From Escherichia coli (lineage in GTDB: Bacteria; Pseudomonadota; Gammaproteobacteria; Enterobacterales; Enterobacteriaceae): a stretch of 64,000 nucleotides of DNA. The translations under genes were made by a program, and so were the position numbers. The stretch is taken from NCBI RefSeq assembly GCF_030384885.1, contig NZ_CP128613.1; one strand, written 5' to 3'. Below the pieces are notes generated by a model, which worked only from the letters and a program-made list of their open reading frames with translations, was not told where the DNA came from and did no database searches. Shown piece by piece: positions 6,697 through 58,265 of the stretch; position 1 is the first letter of the stretch, and every line of letters starts with the position of its first letter.

Positions 6697-9085
<2,389 letters not shown>

Positions 9086-9336
9086 GGTTCTCTCCCTAAA
9101 AATCTGTCTGGCAGGGTAGCGATTTGTGCGCATTGTCACGATTGAGATTTTTTAAGGTGAGAGGAAATTGATAATTTGTAGTTATGTGAAATTGTTATTT
9201 TCTGTAGTGTGAATGCATTATTCTGATTTCGTGATAAGTAAAATGCATTAGAAAAAGTATGGAGTAATTAAACGTGAGGACGAAACTATATGCGTAGCGC
9301 CGCTGTAATTTACAACGGCCTACGGAGATATGTTGT

Positions 9337-10200
9337 TTACTCAATATTCTGGATTTGCTCGCGCATCTGCTCGATCAACACTTTCAGCTCGATGGCAGAG
9401 TTTGTCACTTCGGCATTGATAGACTTCGAGGCCAGGGTGTTTGACTCGCGGTTGAACTCCTGCATCATAAAGTCCAGACGACGACCAACGGCTTCTTTTT
9501 TCTTCAGAATGTTGTAGGTCTCTTTAACATGCGCTTCGAGGCGGTCCAACTCTTCGGCAACGTCAATTCGTTGTGCCAGCAGAACCAACTCCTGCTCCAG
9601 ACGGTTGTTTTCCAGTTGCACCTGGGCGTCTTCCAGCTTAGCCACCAGACGTTCACGCTGCCATTGCAGGATTTCCGGCATATGGGCGCGGACTTTGACC
9701 ACTTCGGCGGTCACGCCTTCCAGACGCTGCTCGATCAATGCTTTCAGCGCCTGACCTTCGGTTTCGCGCGCGACGATAAAGTCATCCAGCGTACCATCCA
9801 GCGCCGCGAGAATTTCAGCAGCAATCGCGTCGAGATCCTGCTCCTGGGCTGCCATCACGCCTGGCCAACGGAGAATATCAACCGGGTTGATTTCCCCTTC
9901 GTCACTCTGCATTTTTACCCAGTTCGCGGCAGTTACCAGCTGTTTAGCCAGTTTTTCGTTGAGGATCAGCTCACCTTGCGCGCTAACATCTGGCTCATAG
10001 CGCAGGGTACATTCCACTTTACCGCGCGTCAGGCGAGAACGAATACGCTCGCGAACGACAGGTTCAAGGCTACGGAACTGCTCCGGCAGACGAAAGTAAG
10101 TTTCCAGATAACGCTGGTTTACCGAGCGCATTTCCCAGGTTGCGCTCCCCCATTCACCCTTGATTTCACGCCGGGCGTAGGCGGTCATACTGCGGATCAT
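9337..10200 (-). CDS. yicC: YicC-family stress-induced protein
   Basis: 287-aa ORF MIRSMTAYARREIKGEWGSATWEMRSVNQRYLE...; divergent from rph as in K-12. Confidence 0.95.
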   Translation of the reverse strand: MIRSMTAYARREIKGEWGSATWEMRSVNQRYLETYFRLPEQFRSLEPVVRERIRSRLTRGKVECTLRYEPDVSAQGELILNEKLAKQLVTAANWVKMQSDEGEINPVDILRWPGVMAAQEQDLDAIAAEILAALDGTLDDFIVARETEGQALKALIEQRLEGVTAEVVKVRAHMPEILQWQRERLVAKLEDAQVQLENNRLEQELVLLAQRIDVAEELDRLEAHVKETYNILKKKEAVGRRLDFMMQEFNRESNTLASKSINAEVTNSAIELKVLIEQMREQIQNIE

Positions 10201-11108: not shown

Positions 11109-11750
11109 ATGAAACCATATCAGCGCCAGTTTATTGAATTTGCGCTTGGCAAGCAGGTGTTAAAGTTTGGCGAGTTTACGCTGAAGTCCGGGCGCAAAAG
11201 CCCCTATTTCTTCAACGCCGGGCTGTTTAATACCGGGCGCGATCTGGCACTGTTAGGCCGTTTTTACGCTGAAGCGTTAGTGGATTCCGGCATTAAGTTC
11301 GATCTGCTGTTTGGCCCTGCTTACAAAGGGATCCCAATTGCCACCACAACTGCTGTGGCGCTGGCGGAGCATCATGACCTGGATCTGCCGTACTGCTTTA
11401 ACCGCAAAGAAGCAAAAGACCACGGTGAAGGCGGCAATCTGGTCGGTAGCGCGTTACAAGGACGCGTAATGCTGGTGGATGATGTGATCACCGCCGGAAC
11501 GGCGATTCGTGAGTCGATGGAAATTATTCAGGCCAATGGCGCGACGCTTGCTGGCGTATTGATTTCGCTCGATCGTCAGGAGCGTGGTCGCGGCGAGATT
11601 TCGGCAATTCAGGAAGTTGAACGTGATTACAACTGCAAAGTGATCTCTATCATCACCCTGAAAGACTTGATTGCTTATCTGGAAGAGAAGCCAGAAATGG
11701 CGGAACATCTGGCGGCGGTTAAGGCCTATCGCGAAGAGTTCGGCGTTTAA
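11109..11750 (+). CDS. pyrE: Orotate phosphoribosyltransferase
   Basis: 213 aa from [36 protein letters not shown]... Confidence 0.97.
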
Positions 11751-11756
11751 AGAAAC

Positions 11757-11781
11757 TCGCCGGATGAAAAGTCATCCGGCG
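11757..11781. terminator. Hairpin between convergent pyrE and slmA
   Basis: cgccggatgaaaagtcatccggcg inverted repeat just after the pyrE stop. Confidence 0.6.
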
Positions 11782-11786
11782 TCATA

Positions 11787-12383
11787 TTACTGCAACTGTG
11801 CAGCAATTAGCGGCCAGCGGGCGTCAAAGTCATCCGTCGGGCGGTATTTAAACTCGCTGCGGACAAAGCGTGACAGCATACCTTCACAGAAGGCCAGGAT
11901 CTGGCTTGCCAGCAGTGTTTCATCGGTGGTGTAACCTTCACCCTCACGCATTCTCTTTTCACGCAATACCTGACGCAACTGCGCTTCAATACGCTCGAAC
12001 AGTTGGTTGATGCGCCCTTGCAGGCGGTCTTGTTCAAACATCAGCGCATGCCCGGTAAGGATGCGGGTCAGGCCAGGATTACGCTCACCAAAACCGAGGA
12101 GCAACAACACGATCAGACGCAGGCGCGCTGTGGTGTCCTTCTCATCTTTCAGAATCAGATTGATGCGAGTAATCAGGCTATCTTCGATAAACTCAATCAG
12201 GCTATCGAACATGCGGGTCTTACTGGGGAAGTGGCGATACAGTGCCGCTTCGGAAACGCCGACAGAGGCGGCCAGTTTTGCCGTCGTGATACGTTGGCTT
12301 CCATCGCTGGATTCCAGCATCAGCGCCAGAGACTGAAGTATTTCTTCGCGACGGTTCCTTTTCGCAGTTTGTTTTTCTGCCAT
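11787..12383 (-). CDS. slmA: Nucleoid occlusion factor SlmA (TetR family)
   Basis: 198 aa from [52 protein letters not shown]... Confidence 0.96.
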
Positions 12384-31350: not shown

Positions 31351-32547
31351 ATGCGTGGAGAATTTTATCAGCAGTTAACCAACGATCTGGAAACCGCAAG
31401 GGCGGAAGGGTTGTTTAAAGAAGAGCGCATTATTACGTCTGCGCAACAAGCAGACATCACTGTGGCTGATGGAAGCCACGTCATTAACTTTTGTGCCAAT
31501 AACTATCTCGGACTGGCGAATCATCCGGATCTGATTGCGGCGGCAAAGGCGGGAATGGATTCTCACGGTTTCGGCATGGCTTCGGTGCGTTTTATTTGCG
31601 GCACTCAGGACAGCCATAAAGAGCTTGAACAAAAACTGGCGGCCTTCCTGGGGATGGAAGATGCGATTCTCTACTCTTCCTGCTTTGATGCTAACGGTGG
31701 CCTGTTCGAAACGCTGTTGGGCGCGGAAGACGCCATTATCTCCGACGCACTGAACCACGCGTCTATTATTGATGGTGTGCGTCTGTGCAAAGCTAAACGC
31801 TATCGTTATGCCAACAACGATATGCAGGAGCTGGAAGCACGTCTGAAAGAAGCGCGTGAAGCCGGTGCGCGTCATGTGCTGATTGCCACCGATGGTGTGT
31901 TCTCGATGGACGGCGTGATTGCCAACCTGAAAGGTGTTTGCGATCTGGCAGATAAATACGATGCCCTGGTGATGGTAGACGACTCCCACGCCGTTGGTTT
32001 TGTCGGTGAAAATGGTCGTGGTTCCCATGAATACTGCGATGTGATGGGCCGGGTCGATATTATCACCGGCACGCTCGGTAAAGCGCTGGGCGGGGCTTCT
32101 GGTGGTTATACCGCGGCGCGCAAAGAAGTGGTTGAGTGGCTGCGCCAGCGTTCTCGTCCGTACCTGTTCTCCAACTCGTTGGCACCGGCCATTGTTGCCG
32201 CTTCCATCAAAGTGCTGGAGATGGTTGAAGCGGGTAGCGAGCTGCGTGACCGTCTGTGGGCGAACGCGCGTCAGTTCCGTGAGCAAATGTCGGCGGCGGG
32301 CTTTACCCTGGCGGGTGCCGATCACGCCATTATTCCGGTCATGCTTGGCGATGCTGTAGTGGCGCAAAAATTTGCACGTGAACTGCAAAAAGAGGGCATT
32401 TACGTCACCGGTTTCTTCTATCCGGTCGTTCCGAAAGGTCAGGCGCGTATTCGTACCCAGATGTCTGCGGCGCATACCCCTGAGCAAATTACGCGTGCGG
32501 TAGAAGCGTTCACGCGTATTGGTAAACAACTGGGCGTAATCGCCTGA
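31351..32547 (+). CDS. kbl: 2-amino-3-ketobutyrate CoA ligase (glycine C-acetyltransferase)
   Basis: 398-aa [41 protein letters not shown]... Confidence 0.98.
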
Positions 32548-32560
32548 GTGAGGATGTGAG

Positions 32561-33586
32561 ATGAAAGCGTTATCCAAACTGAAAGCGGAAGAGGGCATCT
32601 GGATGACCGACGTTCCTGAACCGGAACTCGGACATAACGATCTGCTGATTAAAATCCGTAAAACAGCCATCTGCGGGACTGACGTTCACATCTATAACTG
32701 GGATGAGTGGTCGCAAAAAACCATCCCAGTACCGATGGTTGTAGGCCATGAATATGTCGGTGAGGTGGTTGGCATCGGTCAGGAAGTGAAAGGCTTCAAG
32801 ATCGGCGATCGCGTTTCTGGCGAAGGCCATATCACTTGTGGTCACTGTCGCAACTGTCGTGGTGGCCGTACCCATTTGTGCCGCAACACGATAGGCGTTG
32901 GTGTTAATCGCCCGGGCTGCTTCGCCGAATATCTGGTGATTCCGGCGTTCAACGCTTTCAAAATCCCCGACAATATCTCCGATGATCTGGCTTCCATTTT
33001 TGATCCCTTCGGTAACGCCGTGCATACCGCGCTGTCGTTTGATCTGGTGGGCGAGGATGTGCTGGTCTCTGGTGCAGGCCCGATTGGTATTATGGCGGCG
33101 GCGGTGGCGAAACACGTTGGTGCACGTAACGTGGTGATTACTGATGTTAACGAATACCGCCTTGAGTTGGCGCGTAAAATGGGTATCACCCGTGCGGTTA
33201 ACGTCGCTAAAGAGAACCTCAATGATGTGATGGCAGAACTGGGCATGACCGAAGGCTTTGATGTCGGTCTGGAAATGTCCGGTGCGCCGCCAGCGTTTCG
33301 TACCATGCTCGACACCATGAACCACGGCGGTCGCATTGCGATGCTGGGTATTCCGCCGTCTGATATGTCTATCGACTGGACCAAAGTGATCTTTAAAGGC
33401 TTGTTCATTAAAGGTATTTACGGTCGTGAGATGTTTGAAACCTGGTACAAGATGGCGGCGCTGATTCAGTCTGGCCTCGATCTCTCGCCGATCATTACCC
33501 ATCGTTTCTCTATCGATGATTTCCAGAAGGGCTTTGACGCTATGCGTTCGGGCCAGTCCGGGAAAGTTATTCTGAGCTGGGATTAA
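32561..33586 (+). CDS. tdh: L-threonine 3-dehydrogenase
   Basis: 341-aa [46 protein letters not shown]... Confidence 0.98.
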
Positions 33587-33595
33587 CACGAACAA

Positions 33596-33622
33596 GGGCT
33601 GGTATTCCAGCCCTTTTTCCTG
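33596..33622 (+). terminator. Rho-independent terminator of kbl-tdh
   Basis: aagggctggtattccagccc hairpin followed by ttttt. Confidence 0.85.
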
Positions 33623-33823
33623 AGGATAATCCGTTAAATATGTAAAATCCTGTCAGTGTAATAAAGAGTTCGTAATTGCGCTGATCTCTTATATAGCTGC
33701 TCTCATTATCTCTCTACCCTGAAGTGACTCTCTCACCTGTAAAAATAATATCTCACAGGCTTAATGGTTTCTTAATACAAAGCCTGTAAAACATCAGGAT
33801 AACTTCAGAGGTCGTCGGTATTT

Positions 33824-34858
33824 ATGATGAACAGCACCAATAAACTCAGTGTTATTATCCCGTTATATAATGCGGGAGATGATTTCCGTACTTGCATGGA
33901 ATCTTTAATCGCGCAAACCTGGACTGCTCTGGAAATCATTATTATTAACGATGGTTCAACGGATAATTCTGTTGAAATAGCAAAGCATTACGCGGAAAAC
34001 TATCCGCACGTTCGTTTGCTGCATCAGGCGAATGCCGGCGCATCGGTGGCGCGTAATCGTGGGATCGAGGCGGCGACGGGTAAATATGTCGCTTTTGTCG
34101 ATGCTGACGATGAGGTCTATCCCACTATGTACGAAACGCTGATGACCATGGCGTTAGAGGACGACCTCGACGTGGCGCAGTGCAACGCTGACTGGTGTTT
34201 TCGTGAAACGGGAGAAACCTGGCAATCCATCCCCAGCGATCGCCTTCGCTCAACCGGCGTATTAACCGGCCCTGATTGGTTGCGGATGGGGCTTTCTTCC
34301 CGCCGTTGGACTCATGTTGTCTGGATGGGGGTTTATCGTCGTGATGTCATTGTTAAAAATAACATTAAATTTATTGCCGGATTACATCATCAGGATATTG
34401 TCTGGACAACAGAATTTATGTTTAACGCGCAACGCGTGCGATATACCGAGCAATCGTTATATAAATATTATTTGCATAATACGTCAGTGAGCCGATTGAA
34501 TAGACAGGGAAATAAAAACCTTAATTATCAACGCCACTATATTAAGATTACCCGACTGTTGGAAAAGTTAAATCGCGATTACGCAGACAGAATAGTGATT
34601 TACCCGGAATTTCATCAACAAATAACTTACGAAGCATTACGTGTTTGCCATGCGGTACGTAAAGAGCCAGATATTATTACCCGCCAACGGATGATTGCTG
34701 AGATATTTACTTCCGGTATGTATAAGCGCCTGATTTCCAATGTACGCAGCATAAAGGTGGGTTATCAGGCGTTACTGTGGTCTTTCCGCTTATGGCAATG
34801 GCGCGACAAAACGCGGTCGCACCATCGCATTACGCGTAGCGCCTTTAATTTGCGCTAG
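33824..34858 (+). CDS. waaH: GT2 glycosyltransferase WaaH (YibD)
   Basis: 344-aa ORF MMNSTNKLSVIIPLYNAGDDFRTCMESLIAQT... with DxD (VDADDE). Confidence 0.93.
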   Translation: MMNSTNKLSVIIPLYNAGDDFRTCMESLIAQTWTALEIIIINDGSTDNSVEIAKHYAENYPHVRLLHQANAGASVARNRGIEAATGKYVAFVDADDEVYPTMYETLMTMALEDDLDVAQCNADWCFRETGETWQSIPSDRLRSTGVLTGPDWLRMGLSSRRWTHVVWMGVYRRDVIVKNNIKFIAGLHHQDIVWTTEFMFNAQRVRYTEQSLYKYYLHNTSVSRLNRQGNKNLNYQRHYIKITRLLEKLNRDYADRIVIYPEFHQQITYEALRVCHAVRKEPDIITRQRMIAEIFTSGMYKRLISNVRSIKVGYQALLWSFRLWQWRDKTRSHHRITRSAFNLR

Positions 34859-35804
34859 CGTTAAGTTTTGCCGCTTCGGGCTGCTTGCCCCAGCCTTGCC
34901 ACTGATGCTGGAAGTAAACGATCAGCGTGCTCTGGCTGATGCTTTCGCTTAATACTTCAAAGAAGCGATTAGCATAAACCGGTTCCAGCGGTTTCTTCGG
35001 TTTACACAGTTTCACGCCACGGAACGGATTATGCGGTGCATCAGGCACAGCGTTTTTCGGCGGTGTAGAAGTATCAACCTGCGGTTCATTCAGCAAGCTG
35101 CTGGCTTTCACCAGTGTAATGTCTGGCGGCAGGTTATAAACCATCTGTTGCAACACGCGTACCGTTGAAGGGTGAGGATGCCCAATGGCAATGGTCGAAC
35201 CGTTGCGACGCGCCAGGTCAATTGCACGATTAAACTGCACACGGATGTCTGCTTCGTTCTGTGAATCGTCGAGAAACACCTTCCGTTTAATAACCTTCAC
35301 GCCAGTGCCTTGCGCGGCGCGCATCGCCTGGGTATTACCGATGGTTACGCTGTCGAGGAAGTAAAGATTGTAACGCGCCAGTGCCTGCATCACTTTCTGC
35401 ATGCCAAACAGGTTAGAGGTCATCTTGCTACCCATGTGGTTGTTGATCCCCACGGCATAGGGCACGTTATTGACCGCACTACGAATAATGCGCTCAATTT
35501 CGTCGCTGCTCATCTCCGGGCGCAGCGTATTTTTCTCCAGCGGCTGTTTACTCAACGGTGCCATTGGCAGATGAATCAACACTTCGTGACCGCTGTTATG
35601 CGCTTTGGTCGCCATCTCTCTGGCGTGCGGTGAATCGGGTAATACAGCGACGGAGATAGCGGAAGGCATCGCCAGCACCTGGTTTTCGTTGTGCGGGCGA
35701 TACCCAAAATCATCAATGACGATGGCAAGTTTGCCAGCAAGTACAGGGGAGGAGAGCGCCAACAGAGCGGCAAATGCAAGAACGTTACGACGAAATGGAA
35801 ACAA
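34845..35804 (-). CDS. yibQ: Divergent polysaccharide deacetylase family protein YibQ
   Basis: 319-aa ORF with an N-terminal signal peptide (MFPFRRNVLAFAALLALSSPVLAG). Confidence 0.92.
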   Translation of the reverse strand: MFPFRRNVLAFAALLALSSPVLAGKLAIVIDDFGYRPHNENQVLAMPSAISVAVLPDSPHAREMATKAHNSGHEVLIHLPMAPLSKQPLEKNTLRPEMSSDEIERIIRSAVNNVPYAVGINNHMGSKMTSNLFGMQKVMQALARYNLYFLDSVTIGNTQAMRAAQGTGVKVIKRKVFLDDSQNEADIRVQFNRAIDLARRNGSTIAIGHPHPSTVRVLQQMVYNLPPDITLVKASSLLNEPQVDTSTPPKNAVPDAPHNPFRGVKLCKPKKPLEPVYANRFFEVLSESISQSTLIVYFQHQWQGWGKQPEAAKLNASAN

Positions 35805-35807
35805 AAC

Positions 35808-37067
35808 TTATCTTCCCAACCACGGCTGTGGATTGACCGCCTGACCCTGGCGGCGAATTTCGAAATAGAGTGAAGGCCGACCCTGACCGCCACTGCTGCC
35901 CACCAGTGCAATTGGCTGGCCCGCGCGAACCTGCGAACCAACGCTCACCAGTGCGCTCTGATTATAGCCGTAAAGACTCATGTCGCCTTTACCATGCTCA
36001 ACCACCACCACCAGACCGTAGCCTTGCAGCCAGTCAGCCAGAATCACCCGACCGTCGGCAATCGCTTTAACTTCAGTACCTTCAGAAGCACCAATCACCA
36101 TCCCTTTCCAGCGCAGCTCACCCTGTAGCTGTTCACCATAGCGATGCAGCGTCGGCCCGCGAACCGGCCAGAATGCCTGACCACGCGGCGCGCCCAGGCC
36201 ACCAGTTCGGGACATCAGCGATTTTTCGCTTTCGGTCGGTTTGTAGGTGGTGCCTTTGCGCGTCGCTTCTTTCTGACGGTCGCGAACCGCCTGGGCTTCG
36301 CGCGCCTCACGTTCAGCACGCGCTTTCGCTGCCGCTTCCGCACGGGCAATGCTGTTACGCAGACGAGATTCGTTGGCGCGCAGCTCGCTCAACTGTTGTT
36401 GACCTTGCTGGATGGAAGACTCTAGCCCAGCCAGCGTCTTTTTACGCTCGTTCAGCGCCTGGGTCAGCTTCGCCTGTTGGGCGCGCTGCTCATATAACAG
36501 TGTTTGTTGCTCGCTCTGTTTCTCTTCCAGCTCGGCGCGTTGCATAGCGACTTCTTCACGCGTTTGTTTCAACTGAGCAATGGTTTCTTGTCGCGCCTGG
36601 TTGAGATAACCGAAATAAGCCTGTAAACGCTGACCACGCTGGCTTTCTTCACCGCTGAGAATGAGCTGAATACCGGTATGCTCGCCCTGACGAAACGCGG
36701 CATCCAGTTGCGCGGCGAGGCTGCGTTCCTGGGCGGCTTTTTGCTGCTCCAGTTTGGCAATCGATGCGTTCATCTCATCAATCTGTTTATTCAGTTGATT
36801 GAGTGTGTTTTGCGTTTCGCGCAGCTTGCGAGTGGCTTCAGAGATCGCTTCTTCCTGCTTTTTCAATTGTGCGAGCAGGCTTGCGCGTTGTTGTTGCTTT
36901 TGGCGTACCGCGCGCTCTTTCGCGGCGATATCGGCCTGAATAGATTTGAGTTGGTCGCGATCATCCGCGTGGGCGGAAAAGGCGCACAACAATACGCCAG
37001 CGCTAAGAACGCTGGCGTAGATGATAGGCCTGATTGCAAACCTGCGCGGTTTCACGGCCCGTGTCAT
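35808..37067 (-). CDS. envC: Murein hydrolase activator EnvC
   Basis: 419 aa from MTRAVKPRRFAIRPIIYASVLSAGVLL...; long coiled coil plus C-terminal LytM (M23-like) domain; the ORF track is 8 codons longer. Confidence 0.95.
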   Translation of the reverse strand: MTRAVKPRRFAIRPIIYASVLSAGVLLCAFSAHADDRDQLKSIQADIAAKERAVRQKQQQRASLLAQLKKQEEAISEATRKLRETQNTLNQLNKQIDEMNASIAKLEQQKAAQERSLAAQLDAAFRQGEHTGIQLILSGEESQRGQRLQAYFGYLNQARQETIAQLKQTREEVAMQRAELEEKQSEQQTLLYEQRAQQAKLTQALNERKKTLAGLESSIQQGQQQLSELRANESRLRNSIARAEAAAKARAEREAREAQAVRDRQKEATRKGTTYKPTESEKSLMSRTGGLGAPRGQAFWPVRGPTLHRYGEQLQGELRWKGMVIGASEGTEVKAIADGRVILADWLQGYGLVVVVEHGKGDMSLYGYNQSALVSVGSQVRAGQPIALVGSSGGQGRPSLYFEIRRQGQAVNPQPWLGR

Positions 37068-37100
37068 GGTATTAATCGCCTTTCCCCTCATGGGGAGGGA

Positions 37101-38645
37101 TTATTCCACGATGAACAGCGGCTTACCAGTCATCTCTTGCGGGATTTCCATACCCATCAGCGACAACATGGTCGGCGCGATGTCAGAAAGTTTGCCGCCT
37201 TCAACCGCTTTCACGTTCTTATCGCCAACGTAAATCAGCGGAACAGGCAGGTTGGTGTGCGCTGTGTGCGCCTGACCCGTTGCCGGATCGCGCATCTGTT
37301 CAGCGTTACCGTGGTCAGCGGTGATCAGCAGTTGTCCACCTACAGACTCAACCGCTTTCGCAACTTCATCCACGCAGTGATCCAGCGCTTCAACGGCTTT
37401 AACCGCTGCTTCCATCACCCCGGTGTGACCTACCATGTCGCCGTTAGGATAGTTACAGATGATAGTGTCGTATTTGCCGCTCTTGATGGCCGCAACCAGT
37501 TTTTCGGTCAGCTCTGCGGAGCTCATTTCCGGTTGCAGGTCGTAAGTAGCGACTTTCGGTGAGTTGATCAGAATGCGATCTTCGCCTTTGAACGACTCTT
37601 CTACGCCACCGTTGAAGAAGAAAGTGACGTGGGCATATTTTTCGGTTTCGGAAATACGCAGCTGAGTTTTGTCGTTTTTCGCCATCCACTCGCCGAAGGT
37701 GTTAACCAGAGAAGCTGGCGGGTAAGCAACCGCAGTTTTGATGTCAGCAGCGTATTCGGTCAGCATCACGAAATCGATGTTAACTACTTTCTTACGCGCG
37801 AAGCCGTCGAAATCAGCGTTCACGAAAGCACGAGTGATTTCACGCGCGCGGTCAGCACGGAAGTTCATGAAAATCAGCGCGTCGCCGTCTTCCATTGCCG
37901 CGTCTGGCTGGCCTTCAGCACGGATAACGGTCGCTTTCACGAATTCGTCGTTTTCGTCGCGAGCATAAGCAGCCTGCAAACCGGCAACAGCGGTGTCGGC
38001 CTGGAATTCGCCCTGCGCCAGCGTCAGCAGGTCATACGCTTTTTCAACGCGATCCCAACGATTGTCGCGGTCCATGGCGTAGTAACGACCAATGATGGAC
38101 GCTACGCGGCCTTTGCCCAGCGCGGCAAATTTCTCTTCGAATTTTTTCAGCGAGGATTCAGCACTGCGCGGCGGGGTGTCGCGACCGTCAAGGAATGCGT
38201 GCAGGTAGATTTTTTCTGCGCCGCGTTCCGCTGCCAGTTCTACCATCGCCATGATGTGATCTTCGTGGCTGTGTACACCACCTGCGGACAGCAGACCCAT
38301 AATGTGTACTGCTTTGCCCGCATTTTTCGCTTTATCTACCGCACCAGTCAGCACCGGATTAGCGAAGAAAGCGCGATCTTTGATTTCAACGTCCAGACGA
38401 GTCAGGTCCTGATACACGATGCGGCCGGCACCCAGGTTAACGTGGCCTACTTCGGAGTTACCCATTTGACGGTCAGGCAGACCGACTTCCAGACCGGAAG
38501 CGTCGATCAGGGTATGCGGACGATTGGCCCACAGTGCATCCATTACCGGGGTTTTAGCACTAAAAATGGCGTTATCCTGCTGTTCTTCGCGATAGCCATA
38601 GCCATCCAGAATCACCAGTACCATAGGTTTTTTAGAAACCGACAT
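37101..38645 (-). CDS. gpmM: 2,3-bisphosphoglycerate-independent phosphoglycerate mutase
   Basis: 514 aa from [36 protein letters not shown]...; the ORF track reads 48 codons further upstream; the ATG at 38643..38645 was checked. Confidence 0.96.
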
Positions 38646-38889
38646 TGCGACAACCTCATACTCAAGAGTCAAAATTTGCGTAATTTTACTACAGCTGAAT
38701 CGATAAAATAGCCTCTGAAGATCAAAATATACGACCGCTCGCGGCAAGCCGATGCCAGATTTACGCTTTTTTTTCGTAGCGCCCCGCAAAATTGCATTCC
38801 AGTTAACGCGCTGGCTGTATTTGCCGCACCGCGCAGGTATACTCCTTTCCTGGTTTTTTTAATCACTACGTCGGGAGTTGTTACCCCCC

Positions 38890-51898: not shown

Positions 51899-52582
51899 TT
51901 ATTTTTTGTTTTTTCGCTGCCGGGTTTCAGCAGGTTGAACAGTGTCGAACTGGAGATTAGCCATATTGATGGACAACTTCAGATACTTCAGGTTATTAGG
52001 TGAAACGCCTTTTAATGTCAGATTAATGTCTTGCCATTGACCTGGCATTAATTGCAGGGTGGAGTTCATGGTGGTGTTGAACAGCAGTCGCTGCCACTTT
52101 GCCAGCGCTTTGGCATCGGTGGGTCTTTCATTGCCCCATGTGGCTTGAAAGCCAATATTTGATACGGGAACGCTTAATAGGTTGACCAGCGAAATACGAA
52201 TAACGCTGCCATTTTCAACCGCATCAATAGCCAGCACCCGGCCTGCCAAACCAACCGAGCCATTGTTTAAAATGAAGTATTTTGTTTGTGCTGGGTTAAA
52301 TTCGGTGAAGACAAATTCGTCCTGTTTGTCTTTGACTGCCTTTACTACACCCGCCAGCACTTTAGTGGTGTTTGCAATATTAATTTGTTGATTTTCAATA
52401 ATTTCTATTTTTCTTTTATATTGTTCTTGTTCTTTTTCAAGAATCTCTATTTTACTTTTTTGCAATTCTTGCTGTTTGACAAGATCGTCGATCAGATTCG
52501 CTTTCTCAATATAGTCACACCCAGTCAATACCCAGAGTGGCAATGTTATCAACATGCTTAATAGTGCTTTTTTGATGCTCAT
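51899..52582 (-). CDS. SadB-like lipoprotein encoded upstream of the adhesin
   Basis: 227-aa ORF with a lipobox (LTGC) after the signal peptide, a coiled-coil segment (QQELQKSKIEILEKEQEQYKRKIEIIENQQ) and a C-terminal domain; only 43 nt from the adhesin start on the same strand. Confidence 0.75.
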   Translation of the reverse strand: MSIKKALLSMLITLPLWVLTGCDYIEKANLIDDLVKQQELQKSKIEILEKEQEQYKRKIEIIENQQINIANTTKVLAGVVKAVKDKQDEFVFTEFNPAQTKYFILNNGSVGLAGRVLAIDAVENGSVIRISLVNLLSVPVSNIGFQATWGNERPTDAKALAKWQRLLFNTTMNSTLQLMPGQWQDINLTLKGVSPNNLKYLKLSINMANLQFDTVQPAETRQRKNKK

Positions 52583-53155
52583 AGGGTGAATTCCTTTTCA
52601 TGATCCCGATACGTTAACTGTTACGGCGTAATCATCCTTTTTATGAATGATTCGAGTGGAAAATATACGCTATATAAATTTATAAGAGACTTTTTCTATT
52701 AATTGTTGTATTAATTGGTAGTGCGAACATGACATTAAATGTCAGACAATTTCAGATTGTAGCCAATAATATTAATCGCGCGGATTTTAATGATCGATGT
52801 CAATCAATGTCAAATGTTTCACCGGATGAAAACACCGACCAGGAGAAATATTAATATTCAGCATGGTGATGTTTTCTTGGGAAGTGTGTGATTCTGAGCG
52901 ATAAATATAAATAATTAATGGCTGTTACAGGCATTAATGTGCATTAATTCATTGTTATCGCTTATATATCACTTTTTTATTCCATACCATAATTTCAGAA
53001 TTTAGCCTGTAATATGCGCTTCAAAGAGCCGGTGAGATGGAAGCAATAGTGATAAGAATGTTAAAGATATCCGATATCTGGTATCAGGCTCCTGCATGTG
53101 CCAGCAGGAGCGAGTAAATCGTGAGAGGCTGTGATTACAGCGGTGAGACAGGTAC

Positions 53156-53518
53156 TTAAAATGCGGTCTTAGAGAATCCGGTCATCTCTTGCAGGCCCAT
53201 TTCACGGCCCAGCGCGGTCATCGGATGCACAACTACCAGTCCGCGAACACTTTTCTTCAGCTTGCCCATATCAGCCTGCTCTTTTTTGGTAATCGCGCGC
53301 TGGAAGGGCATTTTCATCAGTTTTTGCGCTTCTTTACTGAGTTTCTGGCTGTGAACTTCACGCAGGCGAGCAATTTCGGCTTCCAGCGTGGCTTTTTCTT
53401 TTTCCAGTTCGGCATATTTATCTGCGGCTTCAACCAGTGACAGGTCAGCCTGCTGATGGCGGATAGCGTCCAGGCGATCGCTGAGACGTTTGATTTCGTT
53501 TTTTTCGACTTCTTTCAT
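53156..53518 (-). CDS. yibL: YibL (DUF2810, ribosome-associated protein)
   Basis: 120-aa [58 protein letters not shown]... Confidence 0.93.
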
Positions 53519-53801
53519 GTGATGACTTCTGATAGAGATAAATTTATAGCCTCTAGTATGCGCGACCAGGTGCTTTGTTCACAACAGATGGCATTGTAAT
53601 AGTTCCAGATTGTAACCATTAATGTGTTTGAAAATCACCCAATCTATTGATTAATTAGGAAATTTAAAGAAAAAAGATAGACAACAGAAGAGGATCATTA
53701 TTGAGGATTGAGCACGTTTTCCTTAATGTCATTTAGACCGGGATCTAAACTAAAATTGGCGGCCGCGCATTCCCGGCGCGGGGTAATACGGAGATATCAT
53801 C

Positions 53802-54011
53802 ATGGGCAAATTAGGTGAAAACGTTCCGCTTCTTATCGATAAAGCTGTAGATTTCATGGCATCGAGCCAGGCGTTCCGGGAGTATCTGAAAAAACTTCCT
53901 CCCCGCAATGCGATTCCATCCGGAATACCTGATGAAAGCGTGCCGTTATATCTACAACGTCTGGAGTATTATCGTCGGCTTTATCGGCCGAAACAGGTAG
54001 AGGAGAAGTAA
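53802..54011 (+). CDS. yibT: Small protein YibT
   Basis: 69-aa [37 protein letters not shown]... in the yibL-mtlR gap, where yibT lies in K-12. Confidence 0.75.
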
Positions 54012-54021
54012 GCGAAAGTAC

Positions 54022-54609
54022 TTACTTTTGAAAGGCTTTTTTTAAGCTGATTTTGGAAATCAGCTCTGTCAGTGAAAGGACCATTGTTGATCGCACAGCC
54101 TGTTGGTAACGCTGAATTTGCATTGCATACAAACTGGAGTCTGCGGGTTCAAACTGTGGCGGCGGTGGTAACGCCGCCACACAGTGCAGCTCACCAAAGG
54201 GGCCAAGAATTTCGTCGTCGGTAAAGGCGTACTCATTGCCGTCGTGATTTAGTTCTTCACGCAATGCCATCAGCAGTTCCGCATCTTCATATTCATGGCG
54301 GTTAATGACACCCAACCCGTAAATGAGTTTTAAACGCACAGAAAGATCGCCCAGCGGGCCATCGCCGTCGAGTAACGGTTCTACAGCATACTTCACCGCG
54401 TAATCGTCTTTGCGGAATACCTGAAGCACCAGAAGATTTACCGCCTCGGTCAAAAGCTCGACGGCGGTAATCAGAAAGCTTCGCACGGTTTTGCCAGCAT
54501 TCAGACGCTCAAGCACACGGTTTTCAAAGGCCTGGGTTTGTTCCATTGTTGCCTGCATATCTGACAATCTGTTATTCGGGCGCAGGGAGTCCTGCGCCTG
54601 GTCCACCAT
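54022..54609 (-). CDS. mtlR: Mannitol operon repressor MtlR
   Basis: 195-aa [56 protein letters not shown]... Confidence 0.96.
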   Translation of the reverse strand: MVDQAQDSLRPNNRLSDMQATMEQTQAFENRVLERLNAGKTVRSFLITAVELLTEAVNLLVLQVFRKDDYAVKYAVEPLLDGDGPLGDLSVRLKLIYGLGVINRHEYEDAELLMALREELNHDGNEYAFTDDEILGPFGELHCVAALPPPPQFEPADSSLYAMQIQRYQQAVRSTMVLSLTELISKISLKKAFQK

Positions 54610-55757
54610 TATTGCATTGCTTTATAAGCGGTTACCGCCTCGGATACAACCTCGCTGTTTGCATCAAGGCCAGAAATCTGCGCCAGTGCGGCTTGCGGGC
54701 CTTTGTTGGCGATCAGTGCTGCCAGTTCCTGAGCCTGCGGATCATCTTCACTGCGGAAGTGCATTGCAGCGGCAATACCTTCAATCAGGTTTTTATGTGG
54801 CAGACCATATTCCAGCGTTCCGAGCAGTGGCTTGATCAGACGGTCGCCAGCACTCAGTTTACGCAGCGGCTGACGGCCTACGCGCTCTACATCGTCTTTC
54901 AGATACGGGTTCTCAAAACGACCAAGGATTTTCTGGATGTACGCCGCATGTTTGTCCGCGTCAAAACCGTAACGCTTAATCAGTACAGCGCCACTTTCTT
55001 CCATCGCCCCTTTTACTACCGCGCGGATTTTCTCGTCGAGAATTGCGTCACGAATGGTCTGATGACCTGCCAGTTTTCCGAGGTACGCGGTTATAGCATG
55101 ACCTGTATTCAGGGTGAAGAGTTTACGCTCAACAAATGCCATCAGGTTGTCGGTTAACTCCATGCCTGGGATGTTCGGCAGTGCACCTTTGAACTGGGTT
55201 TTATCGACAATCCATTCGCTGAAGGTTTCGACTGTCACTTCCAGCGGATCGTTCGTTGCCGAAGCGGAAGGCGGTACGATGCGGTCAACGGCGGAATCCA
55301 CAAAGCCAACGTGTTCTTCTACCCACGCTTTGGCGTCTTCTGGCAGGGCGTTCATCACATGGCCTTTCAGTTGCGTGGTGCCGCGTACCATGTTTTCACA
55401 GGCGATAATGTTCAGTGGGGATTCATTACCTTGTTCTTCACGTTTCACCAGCCCTTTGGCGATTGCCGGAGCAATACGTTCCAGCACAACCGGGCCCACG
55501 GCGGTAGTGACTAAATCAACCTGAGCAATCAGATCAACGACATCATCACCAATGCTGCTGACAGCATTGACGCCAGAAACGGTATCTACCTGCTCGGTTT
55601 CACCGACCACATGAACCTGATAGCTATGACGGGCATTCAGGGCATCAAGTACCACCTGATTGACATCGGCAAACGTCAGTTGGATACCCGCGTCTGCCAG
55701 CAGTTTACCGATAAAGCCACGACCGATATTACCTGCGCCAAAATGTAATGCTTTCAT
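54609..55757 (-). CDS. mtlD: Mannitol-1-phosphate 5-dehydrogenase
   Basis: 382 aa from [34 protein letters not shown]...; the ORF track reads 88 codons upstream through the REP region; the ATG at 55755..55757 was checked. Confidence 0.96.
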
Positions 55758-55789
55758 AGTATTAACCTTCATCAATGTTTTTACCCGAG

Positions 55790-55980
55790 AGGGCTGGGGT
55801 GAGGCTTTTCCCTCACCCAAACCCTCTCCATGTGGAGAGGAGCCGCGCCGGATGCGGCGCAAACGCCTTATCCGGCCTACAAGAACGTGCAAATTCAACA
55901 AATTGTGCTTTGTTTTGTAGGCCTGATAAGCGTAGCGCATCAGGCAATTAGCCCCACCGTCTCCATGTGGAGAGAGTGGG
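55790..55980. repeat. REP/BIME cluster in the mtlA-mtlD intergenic region
   Basis: gccggatgcggcgcaaacgccttatccggcctacaag ... tgtaggcctgataagcgtagcgcatcaggc, plus ccctctccatgtggagag palindromes. Confidence 0.85.
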
Positions 55981-55986
55981 GTTGGA

Positions 55987-57900
55987 TTACTTACGACCTG
56001 CCAGCAGTTCCAGTACTTCATCTACGCTGGTGGTGTGCGCCAGACGCTCGATGACGGACTCATCATCCAGTGCGTTGGTCAGGCTGGTGATCACCTGAAT
56101 GTGCTCGTTGTTACGGGCAGCAATACCAATCACCAGGCGGGCAATGTCATCTTCTTCTTCACCGAAGCGCACGCCTTCCGGGTACTGGCAGAACACCACG
56201 CCCGTTTTCAGTACGCGATCTTTCGCTTCAACCGTACCGTGCGGTACCGCGATGGACTCACCCAGATAAGTCGGGGTCAGTTTTTCACGATCCAGCATTG
56301 CCTGAACGTATTCCGGCTCAACGTAACCACCTTTCACCAGCTGCTCGCCAGCAAAACGAATCGCTTCTTCTTTGGTGGCCGCTTTGCGACCGAGGAAGAT
56401 GTTTTCCGCACCCAGTTTGAAGAGGTTAGCACTGGAATCGTCAAAGCTGTCTTTCAGACTGTCTTTCACTTTTACTTCGTTTTCAGTATGGCGCTGGGCA
56501 GCAACCAGACGTTCGGTCAGGCTGGTGTACAGGCCGCTGTCGAGGAAGTTGGTCAGCGAAATATGCTGTGCCTGCGGAACCTGGCGCATAGCGCGTTCGG
56601 TCAGGTCACGGTGAGTGATGACCAGGTCCACATCTGGCGGCAGGTTGTTGATCGCGCTGTTAGTAACAGAAATCTGCGACAGACCTGCATCCTGAATTTT
56701 CTTACGCAGCACACCTGCGCCCATCGCACTGGAACCCATACCGGCATCACAGGCAACGATGATTTTACGGACGTGGCTCAGGTCGTTAGTCACATCGCCC
56801 GCAGACAGCGGAGACGCACCTTTAGACTCAGCTTTCATGTCCTGCATACGACGAGTTGCTGCTTCAATATCATCTTCATCTTTCACTTTGCTGGTTTTCA
56901 GCAGAATGGCAGAGACAACGAAGGAGACTGCCATCGCCGCACACACACCCGCGATGTTAGCGAAGTAAGCACCTTTTGGCGTCATCGCCAGTACCGCAAG
57001 GATAGAGCCCGGAGATGCCGGAGAAACCAGACCACCGCCCAGGATAGTCAGCGTGAACACGCCAGTCATACCGCCGAGGATAACGGCCAGAATCAGACGC
57101 GGATTCATCAGCACATACGGGAAGTAGATTTCGTGGATACCCCCCAGGAAGTGAATGATTGCCGCACCGCCCGCAGACTGTTTAGCGCTACCACGGCCAA
57201 AGAACATGTACGCCAGCAGAACACCCATACCCGGACCTGGGTTAGCTTCAATCAGGAAGAAGATGGATTTACCCAGTTCATGGGACTGCTGAATACCCAG
57301 CGGCGAGAAGATACCGTGGTTAATGGCGTTGTTGAGGAACAGGATTTTCGCCGGTTCAACAAAGATAGACGCCAGCGGCAGCATGTCATGGACAACCATG
57401 AAGTTAACGCCCGCAGCCAGCATTTTGGACAGGGCTTCAACAATTGGGCCAATGCCGAGGAACGCCAGAATAGCGAGGATCATCCCGATGATGCCAGCGG
57501 AGAAGTTATTCACCAGCATCTCAAAACCGGATTTGATCTTACCGTCTACCCAGCGGTCGAAGTGCTTAATGCACCAGCCGCCCAGCGGACCTGCAATCAT
57601 AGAACCGAGGAACATCGGCATATCTGCGCCGACGATAACGCCCATTGTGGTGATGGCACCGACTACGCCGCCACGTTCGCCGCCTACCAGCTTACCACCG
57701 GTATAACCGATCAGTAGTGGCAGGAGATAAGTGATCATCGGCCCGACCAGCTTCGCCAGCGTTTCGTTCGGTAACCACCCTGTTGGAATAAATAATGCGG
57801 TGATAATACCCCACGCGATAAACGCGCCGATATTTGGCATCACCATGTTGCTGAGGAAACGACCAAAGCTTTGCACTTTGATCTTAATATCGGATGACAT
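55987..57900 (-). CDS. mtlA: PTS mannitol-specific EIICBA component
   Basis: 637-aa [40 protein letters not shown]... Confidence 0.98.
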
Positions 57901-58039: not shown

Positions 58040-58265
58040 TTTGTGTGATATGAATCACATAAATATAGGGGGTAGAGAGGTAATTGACGTGATATACATC
58101 ACAAAATACTTGTGTAAAAAAGCAACAAGACGACGATTTTCGCTAAAAATGGCATTTAAATGTGAGTAATGTCACATTTTTGTTTTGTTAGTTTGTTGAA
58201 TCTTTGTGATCTGAATCACAAGATATTTTCTTACGGCGTTCACCTGATGTGATCTGCAGCATGTT
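58040..58265. promoter_or_regulatory. mtl promoter region with clustered CRP-binding sites
   Basis: TGTGA-N6-TCACA matches at 58044..58059 (tgtgatatgaatcaca), 58089..58104 (gtgatatacatcacaa) and 58205..58220 (tgtgatctgaatcaca), plus a half-site at ~58248. Confidence 0.85.

Follow-up and report, generated by a model that had tools for sequence, protein, structure and literature searches.

Introduction

dinD is a classic reporter gene of the SOS response, and in K-12 it is LexA-regulated. DinD also figures in a list of RecA filament regulators (Uranga et al., 2011, as cited in PMC4457935). In the MG1655 strain the gene (b3645) stands between yicC (b3644) and yicG (b3646), and since these loci run yicC, dinD, yicG, a sequence-only reading of the DNA studied here had the K-12 gene order right. 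For the spacer between dinD and yicG of K-12, the hexamers TTATCA-16-AAAAAT are listed (PMC3946193). At the other side of dinD, integrative elements (MGIVflInd1-type and SGI1-like) and PICIs have been published that insert into the 3' end of yicC. Our literature searches on the presence or absence of dinD by phylogroup gave nothing relevant. Here, we analyze the yicG-yicC spacer in the window, that is, the whole stretch of 64,000 nucleotides, and compare it with K-12, with complete E. coli genomes and with other Enterobacteriaceae.

The yicG-yicC locus of the window

The window carries ligB (+), yicG, yicC, rph, pyrE, slmA, dut, and coaBC. The features of the locus are as follows.

8468..9085, minus strand: yicG, 205 aa, trimeric intracellular cation channel family protein (ORF and RefSeq annotation)
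9083..9085, minus strand: start codon of yicG
9086..9285, minus strand: part of the spacer common to dinD-positive genomes, 200 bp, the dinD-yicG side in those genomes
9286..9336, minus strand: putative ancestral segment, 51 bp, directly 3' of the yicC stop codon (alignments and census)
9337..9339, minus strand: stop codon of yicC
9337..10200, minus strand: yicC, 287 aa, YicC/YloC family endoribonuclease (ORF and RefSeq annotation)
9195..9344, minus strand: mechanical ORF, 49 aa, TTG start, runs into yicC
9290..9517, plus strand: mechanical ORF, 75 aa, antisense to yicC

The spacer (9086..9336) had been described as about 250 bp of AT-rich sequence without a gene, which agrees with its 251 bp, its GC content of 37.1% (49.4% in the whole window), and the lack of any annotated gene. 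The RefSeq record with 100% identity over this region has ligB, yicG, yicC, rph, and pyrE annotated and no gene between yicG and yicC. In the ORF list no ORF is confined to the spacer, and the two mechanical ORFs that overlap it both extend into yicC. Genomes of K-12 type, of ST131, and of CFT073 carry the same YicG protein (WP_000924289.1) in their annotation. Further along the window, pyrE and slmA are adjacent without an insert (11750..11787); in E2348/69, a reverse-transcriptase family gene lies between them (L084 8707..9666).

A 1.9-kb region around the junction is 100% identical to that of E. coli 2013C-4282 (NZ_CP027579.1), which is a strain of Escherichia cryptic clade I (PMC10100065). 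The lineage of the window would be cryptic clade I, or at least one with a 100% match to this clade I strain. At the junction, eleven complete genomes match at 100% and 21 at 99% or more; no other exceeds ∼96%. The window and NZ_CP027579.1 are not fully collinear elsewhere, mtlA being offset by 852 bp between them (window ∼32000..56000, from the kbl region to mtlA).

dinD is missing from the spacer and, at megablast sensitivity, from the genome

When the 1139-bp segment that holds dinD in K-12 (hereafter the cassette) was compared with the spacer by sensitive blastn, only chance matches of 7-13 nt were obtained, and tblastn with four DinD variants as queries found nothing below E = 3.9 in the 64-kb window; as a control, K-12 DinD scored 488 bits against NF008573. 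No DinD-matching ORF lies between yicC and yicG in the window, and neither search found dinD there, as the sequence-only reading had proposed. That reading had also suggested looking for dinD remnants or a deletion scar against K-12, and the spacer holds none, no residual dinD or cassette sequence being found in it. The LexA box of K-12 (CTGTATATAAATACAG) lies inside the cassette, which is without a match in the spacer. We also used a chimeric query, made of 2 kb of the window and the conserved 567 nt of dinD, at megablast sensitivity. Genomes with dinD gave two matched places, whereas 2013C-4282 and each of the ten other genomes that are 100% identical to the window gave a single one, and no plasmid was ever matched. 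Because the query found one place in each identical genome, dinD is absent genome-wide at this sensitivity.

Breakpoints of the K-12 cassette

The yicC-yicG gap of K-12 measures 1334 bp, consisting of 220 bp, the 825-bp dinD, and 289 bp, so that the spacer of the window is ∼1.08 kb shorter. Both breakpoints are observed directly: K-12 diverges from the window at the first base past the yicC stop codon, and the local alignment of the K-12 dinD-yicG spacer starts at window position 9285 and ends at 9086. The only part of the window's spacer that is missing from K-12 is thus the 51 bp of 9286..9336, in place of which stands the cassette. The latter (45% GC) contains its own yicC terminator hairpin, the LexA box, the dinD promoter, the 825-bp dinD, and a 94-bp tail. 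Homologues of the 51-bp segment stand in the yicC-proximal part of the spacer in E. whittamii, Escherichia sp. E1V33, and Citrobacter species.

Outgroups and the ancestral state

The outgroup sample comprised 80 YicG loci from GTDB species representatives of Enterobacteriaceae, a scan in which E. fergusonii, E. marmotae, and E. ruysiae were not returned under those names. The states observed in these representatives are mostly empty: in 35 of the 80 a complete yicC lies 204-269 bp from yicG with no DinD match, against one, a Pseudocitrobacter metagenome-assembled genome, with a DinD homologue in the gap (74% amino acid identity to K-12 DinD and 82% to the CFT073 form). The remaining representatives have other insertions, rearrangements, or cut contigs. 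The homology of the window with dinD-free outgroups is collinear over the whole spacer, the alignment with four other Escherichia-type and four Citrobacter sequences reaching both spacer ends. Spacer lengths are likewise close, 251 bp in the window against 249-250 bp in E. whittamii, E1V33, and the outlying 'E. coli' GTDB representative and 245-258 bp in Citrobacter.

Since a deletion cannot regenerate a segment that is absent from the dinD-positive genomes, we consider it highly probable from these comparisons that the window retains the ancestral, unoccupied yicC-yicG spacer, that this lineage most likely never had dinD, and that the cassette is the derived state carried by most E. coli.

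Two other Escherichia loci differ from those above. In Escherichia sp. MOD1-EC7003, only the last ∼25 nt of the K-12 cassette are present, followed by the ancestral spacer, and the contig ends there (L005 1..294). In the E. albertii type strain, lysyl-tRNA-synthetase-like and peptide-transporter-like genes precede yicG (L008 4700..5000), with a breakpoint near the equivalent of window position 9262.

Census and haplotypes in E. coli

We surveyed 5426 complete E. coli genomes, a sample biased by sequencing effort in which ST131 dominates the empty class; our statements on lineages rest on named strains. The census counts are direct observations. yicC was found in 5424 of the 5426 genomes and the dinD region was matched in 4714 (∼87%; 4578 at a coverage of at least 80%). 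A contiguous short yicG-yicC junction was present in 719 genomes, and a 91-bp query specific for the empty site (9255..9345) matched only 708, which places the empty state at ∼13% (708-719 of 5426), a share inflated by the heavy sequencing of ST131. Together, the dinD and empty-segment counts make up 5422 of the 5424 genomes with the locus. The empty site occurs in ST131 (B2), O78:H4 APEC, and APEC O2-211, and dinD is present in CFT073 (B2), O157:H7, strain B, strain W, and K-12. With ST131 empty, CFT073 carrying dinD, and both belonging to B2, the trait varies inside a single phylogroup. The survey of dinD across E. coli that had been proposed from the sequence alone thus finds variation in presence even within B2, as judged from named strains.

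The 200 bp common to both states was compared in eight genomes, and the structure observed is twofold: alleles of the same dinD class share 93.5-100% identity, those of different classes 85-89.5%. The flanking genes, unlike this 200-bp spacer, are not sorted by dinD status. Between ST131 and CFT073, for instance, the whole yicC is 98.4% and the whole yicG 99.2% identical, and the spacer only 85%. To outgroup Escherichia species, the empty alleles are 82.5-85% and the dinD alleles 79.5-81.5% identical. Judged from these alignments, the spacer is divided into two deep haplotypes that track dinD status and not phylogroup.

Loss, replacement, or retention

A dinD-bearing ancestor could have had its spacer swapped back by recombination with an empty-site donor, a secondary loss that we regard as improbable. 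Such allelic replacement would leave no scar, and the locus does recombine, ST131 being empty and CFT073 carrying dinD with flanks that are 98-99% identical. However, all 21 genomes that are at least 99% identical at the junction are empty. Moreover, when the common 200 bp of the spacer are compared with the empty alleles of E. coli sensu stricto, the window shows 93.5-95% identity, which is about the identity of the last 400 nt of yicC (94.5%), and this agreement of spacer and gene argues against a recent import. Vertical retention is simpler, because the outgroup Escherichia species are also empty. An older dinD polymorphism with many losses is formally possible, and the DinD homologue of Pseudocitrobacter at the same position indicates that the cassette is not confined to E. 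coli.

The sequence-only reading had left it at 'lineage-variable or deleted'. The first half is borne out by the 4714 genomes with dinD against 708-719 without it and by the split inside B2; the second fails on the 51-bp segment. A simple deletion of dinD in the genome of the window would account for a spacer shorter than that of K-12, yet we hold it to be very improbable: deletion cannot create the 51-bp stem-loop segment, which dinD-positive genomes lack, no dinD or cassette fragment is left, and the 251 bp match the spacers of E. whittamii, E1V33, and the outlying 'E. coli' representative (249-250 bp) and come near those of Citrobacter. Loss of dinD through misassembly, or its relocation elsewhere in the genome, is hardly credible: nothing speaks for it, the only irregularity being the 852-bp offset against NZ_CP027579.1, far from the locus, and against it stand the junction itself, shared at 100% identity by eleven independent complete genomes and at 99% or more by 21, and a chimeric query without a second place in any of the eleven and without a plasmid match.

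Contents of the unoccupied spacer

The ancestral spacer that we take the window to retain would consist of a yicC 3' stem-loop, an AT-rich stretch, and a conserved yicG promoter with its leader.

9293..9324, minus strand: predicted yicC 3' stem-loop, CGUAGGCCGUUG...CAGCGGCGCUACG in yicC sense
9110..9174, minus strand: putative yicG promoter and leader (published hexamers and alignment conservation)
9169..9174, minus strand: putative yicG -35, TTATCA (hexamers placed by eye)
9147..9152, minus strand: putative yicG -10, AAAAAT (hexamers placed by eye)

The stem-loop has a minimum free energy of -23.4 kcal/mol (z = -4.4), and none of 200 shuffled sequences folds as well. Its consensus fold over 14 Escherichia and Citrobacter sequences has 12 pairs, of which three show compensatory changes, and it is found at the equal position in E. 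whittamii, Escherichia sp. E1V33, the outlying 'E. coli' GTDB representative, and nine Citrobacter sequences. As to an intrinsic terminator, the hairpin is stable and G+C-rich and no U-run stands directly 3' of the stem, GCAUAUAGUUUCG coming next; several Citrobacter sequences, unlike the window, have a T-rich run there. A consensus terminator scan of the spacer gave no site. The stem-loop is predicted to be, probably, a terminator or a stabilizer of the transcript. An Rfam scan of 8900..9600 at E up to 1 returned only SCARNA7, at a meaningless 14 bits.

On the yicG side, the block 9110..9160 is nearly invariant in an alignment of 13 sequences from seven genera. A simple promoter scan of the spacer found no site and missed the yicG hexamers too. 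Inside the conserved leader lies a CRP-like 16-mer (TGTGCGCATTGTCACG, 9125..9140). Matches with two mismatches number 17 in the window against 28 expected, and because they are no commoner than chance, we make no CRP claim for this sequence. Elsewhere in the window, four CRP-consensus palindromes with 0-1 mismatch are crowded within 180 bp (58044..58220) upstream of mtlA (55987..57900, minus strand), the promoter of which is known to have several CRP sites.

The yicC 3' end as an integration site

The following sequences of the window and of occupied loci concern integration at the end of yicC.

9337..9345, minus strand: putative attB core ATTGAGTAA, the last two yicC codons and the stop codon, unoccupied
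L084; L087 12380..34225; L088 20108..29419; L093: loci with islands at the site in other genomes

Islands with an integrase occur at the yicC 3' end in E2348/69, U12A, YZ22PE67, and H2. U12A has a 20-kb island in an empty background, YZ22PE67 has a 6.5-kb island with a P4-type primase between yicC and dinD, and the island of H2 took away the 5' part of dinD. These tyrosine-integrase islands, 6.5 to 20 kb in size, carry several genes (P4-type primase, TOPRIM/DUF927, AntA/AntB antirepressors, Doc toxin, and Icd-like proteins). At the attL and attR junctions of the 20-kb U12A and the 6.5-kb YZ22PE67 islands, we found an imperfect identity block, ATCGARTAA, which overlaps the yicC stop codon. The core of the window, ATTGAGTAA, has one mismatch to it. 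With the target intact and no integrase gene adjacent, the site in the window would be an unoccupied attB.

In 826 of the 5424 genomes, the best match covers less than 80% of the 1.9-kb yicG-yicC query, that is, yicC and yicG are not joined; in the five such genomes among the matches listed, the two genes are two separate matched places. Outside E. coli, the gap of Salmonella arizonae carries a LysR regulator and a metallo-beta-lactamase-fold protein, and that of Klebsiella a CLC channel, an Ada-like methyltransferase, and a PEP mutase; a Mur-ligase-like protein, a sulfatase-family protein, and an AT3/SGNH acyltransferase occur in other genera. Two Citrobacter ORFs in the yicC-yicG gap have no Pfam match. 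Given this varied cargo in other genera, the spacer is a general hotspot, which the window shows unoccupied.

A weak local similarity to the end of yicC (TGTTGATTGAG..GATGCG..TCCAG) lies 20-58 nt past the stop codon of K-12 dinD. The similarity to the last ∼45 nt of yicC has a shuffle p of 0.001-0.007 for local and 0.01-0.6 for global alignment, depending on the allele pair, which is too weak for an integration scar 3' of dinD to be claimed. The similar stretch, within the 94 bp past the dinD stop (L002 2381..2475), could be a decayed duplicate of the yicC end left by integration.

The nature of dinD

DinD has a Bro-N domain and belongs to the equivalog NF008573. It matches the phage family phrog_8036 (4.7e-107), and its homologues in Streptococcus satellite phages share 52-55% amino acid identity; in the one record inspected, Javan19, the homologue directly adjoins the integrase. 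Together with the 45% GC of the cassette, these features give dinD a foreign character, which favors its having been inserted. Over their full length (residues 2-274), both the K-12 (2.4e-121) and the CFT073 allele (1.1e-124) match PDC-S13, a phage defence candidate of PADLOC, and both E. coli alleles match the first 267 of the 717 positions of a Type I R-M specificity-subunit model. The 145 PDC systems, which were chosen for lying inside BREX, DISARM, or Type I R-M loci, are described by the PADLOC authors as untested candidates; PDC-S13 is not mentioned in the literature that we searched.

We compared the following alleles.

L002 2476..3300: dinD, K-12 type
L090 8760..9584: dinD of CFT073
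L091 477..1301: dinD of O157:H7

Two forms of the N-terminal Bro-N part were found, with K-12 on one side and CFT073 and O157:H7 on the other: residues 10-86 are 49% identical and residues 87-274 are 98% identical. K-12 DinD carries the minority N-terminal form. Only 973 genomes reach at least 99% identity to the K-12 dinD-region query, and most other genomes among the matches listed align to it in two separate segments that cover 81%. The homologue of Pseudocitrobacter is similar to the CFT073 form. As a source of dinD, we considered the AntA/AntB antirepressors of the U12A and H2 yicC islands and rejected them, their similarity to DinD not being significant (E > 0.3). Two 174-kb records named 'Campylobacter phage' (MG065686.1 and MG065691.1) encode a protein 100% identical to K-12 DinD, which probably reflects E. 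coli DNA in those assemblies.

It is conceivable, though we think it rather unlikely, that dinD is a captured mobile-element gene, possibly anti-phage, which has come under LexA control and is not a housekeeping SOS gene. We entertain this reading because of the matches to PDC-S13 and the Type I model, the homologues in satellite phages, the integration site, the old presence/absence haplotype, and the two Bro-N forms. Were dinD such a captured gene, what sets empty-site lineages (e.g., clade I and ST131) apart from K-12 would be a trait related to phages or satellites and not DNA repair.

A possible history of the locus

The 1139-bp cassette would have been inserted directly past the yicC stop, replacing the 51 bp with the ancestral stem-loop. 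It may have arisen once, in a diverged donor, at or near the site used by yicC-specific integrases, and it would have entered E. coli with its own diverged copy of the spacer. From there it could have spread by homologous recombination, with crossovers in the conserved flanks and the haplotype moving as a block, so that empty and dinD alleles would come to coexist even inside B2. The mechanism of insertion is one that we infer, because the right boundary lies 51 bp past the yicC stop and a simple site-specific integration deletes no target DNA.

The absence of dinD is an ordinary presence/absence difference and reflects an old insertion polymorphism at a known hotspot. With about one in eight complete genomes lacking it, among them the pandemic ST131 and cryptic clade I, dinD is no core gene of E. 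coli. Since such lineages lack the gene, results on K-12 DinD and dinD reporters should not be assumed to be transferable to them. For the scanning of genomes, this case emphasizes that the lack of a K-12 gene can be the ancestral condition, which a comparison of the empty junction with outgroups settles quickly.

Comparison with known systems

No member of the DinD/Bro-N family (NF008573, phrog_8036, PDC-S13) is encoded in the window or, at megablast sensitivity, in the genomes matching it. The K-12 locus shares with the window the order ligB, yicG, yicC, rph, pyrE and the 200 bp next to yicG, including the promoter, and it differs in having the 1139-bp cassette in place of the 51-bp stem-loop segment; the common 200 bp themselves differ by ∼12-13%. 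The elements that target yicC use the same gene end that is found in the window, where, however, the site is unoccupied and is a putative attB. In layout, the window is like the empty spacers of E. whittamii, Escherichia sp. E1V33, Citrobacter, Enterobacter, Raoultella, and Yokenella, which are gene-free and 204-269 bp long. The central AT-rich part is poorly conserved between the window and other Enterobacteriaceae, and Citrobacter spacers often have a T-run 3' of the stem, which the window is without. As in the window, these empty spacers keep the yicG promoter/leader block, and those of Escherichia and Citrobacter keep the yicC 3' stem-loop as well.
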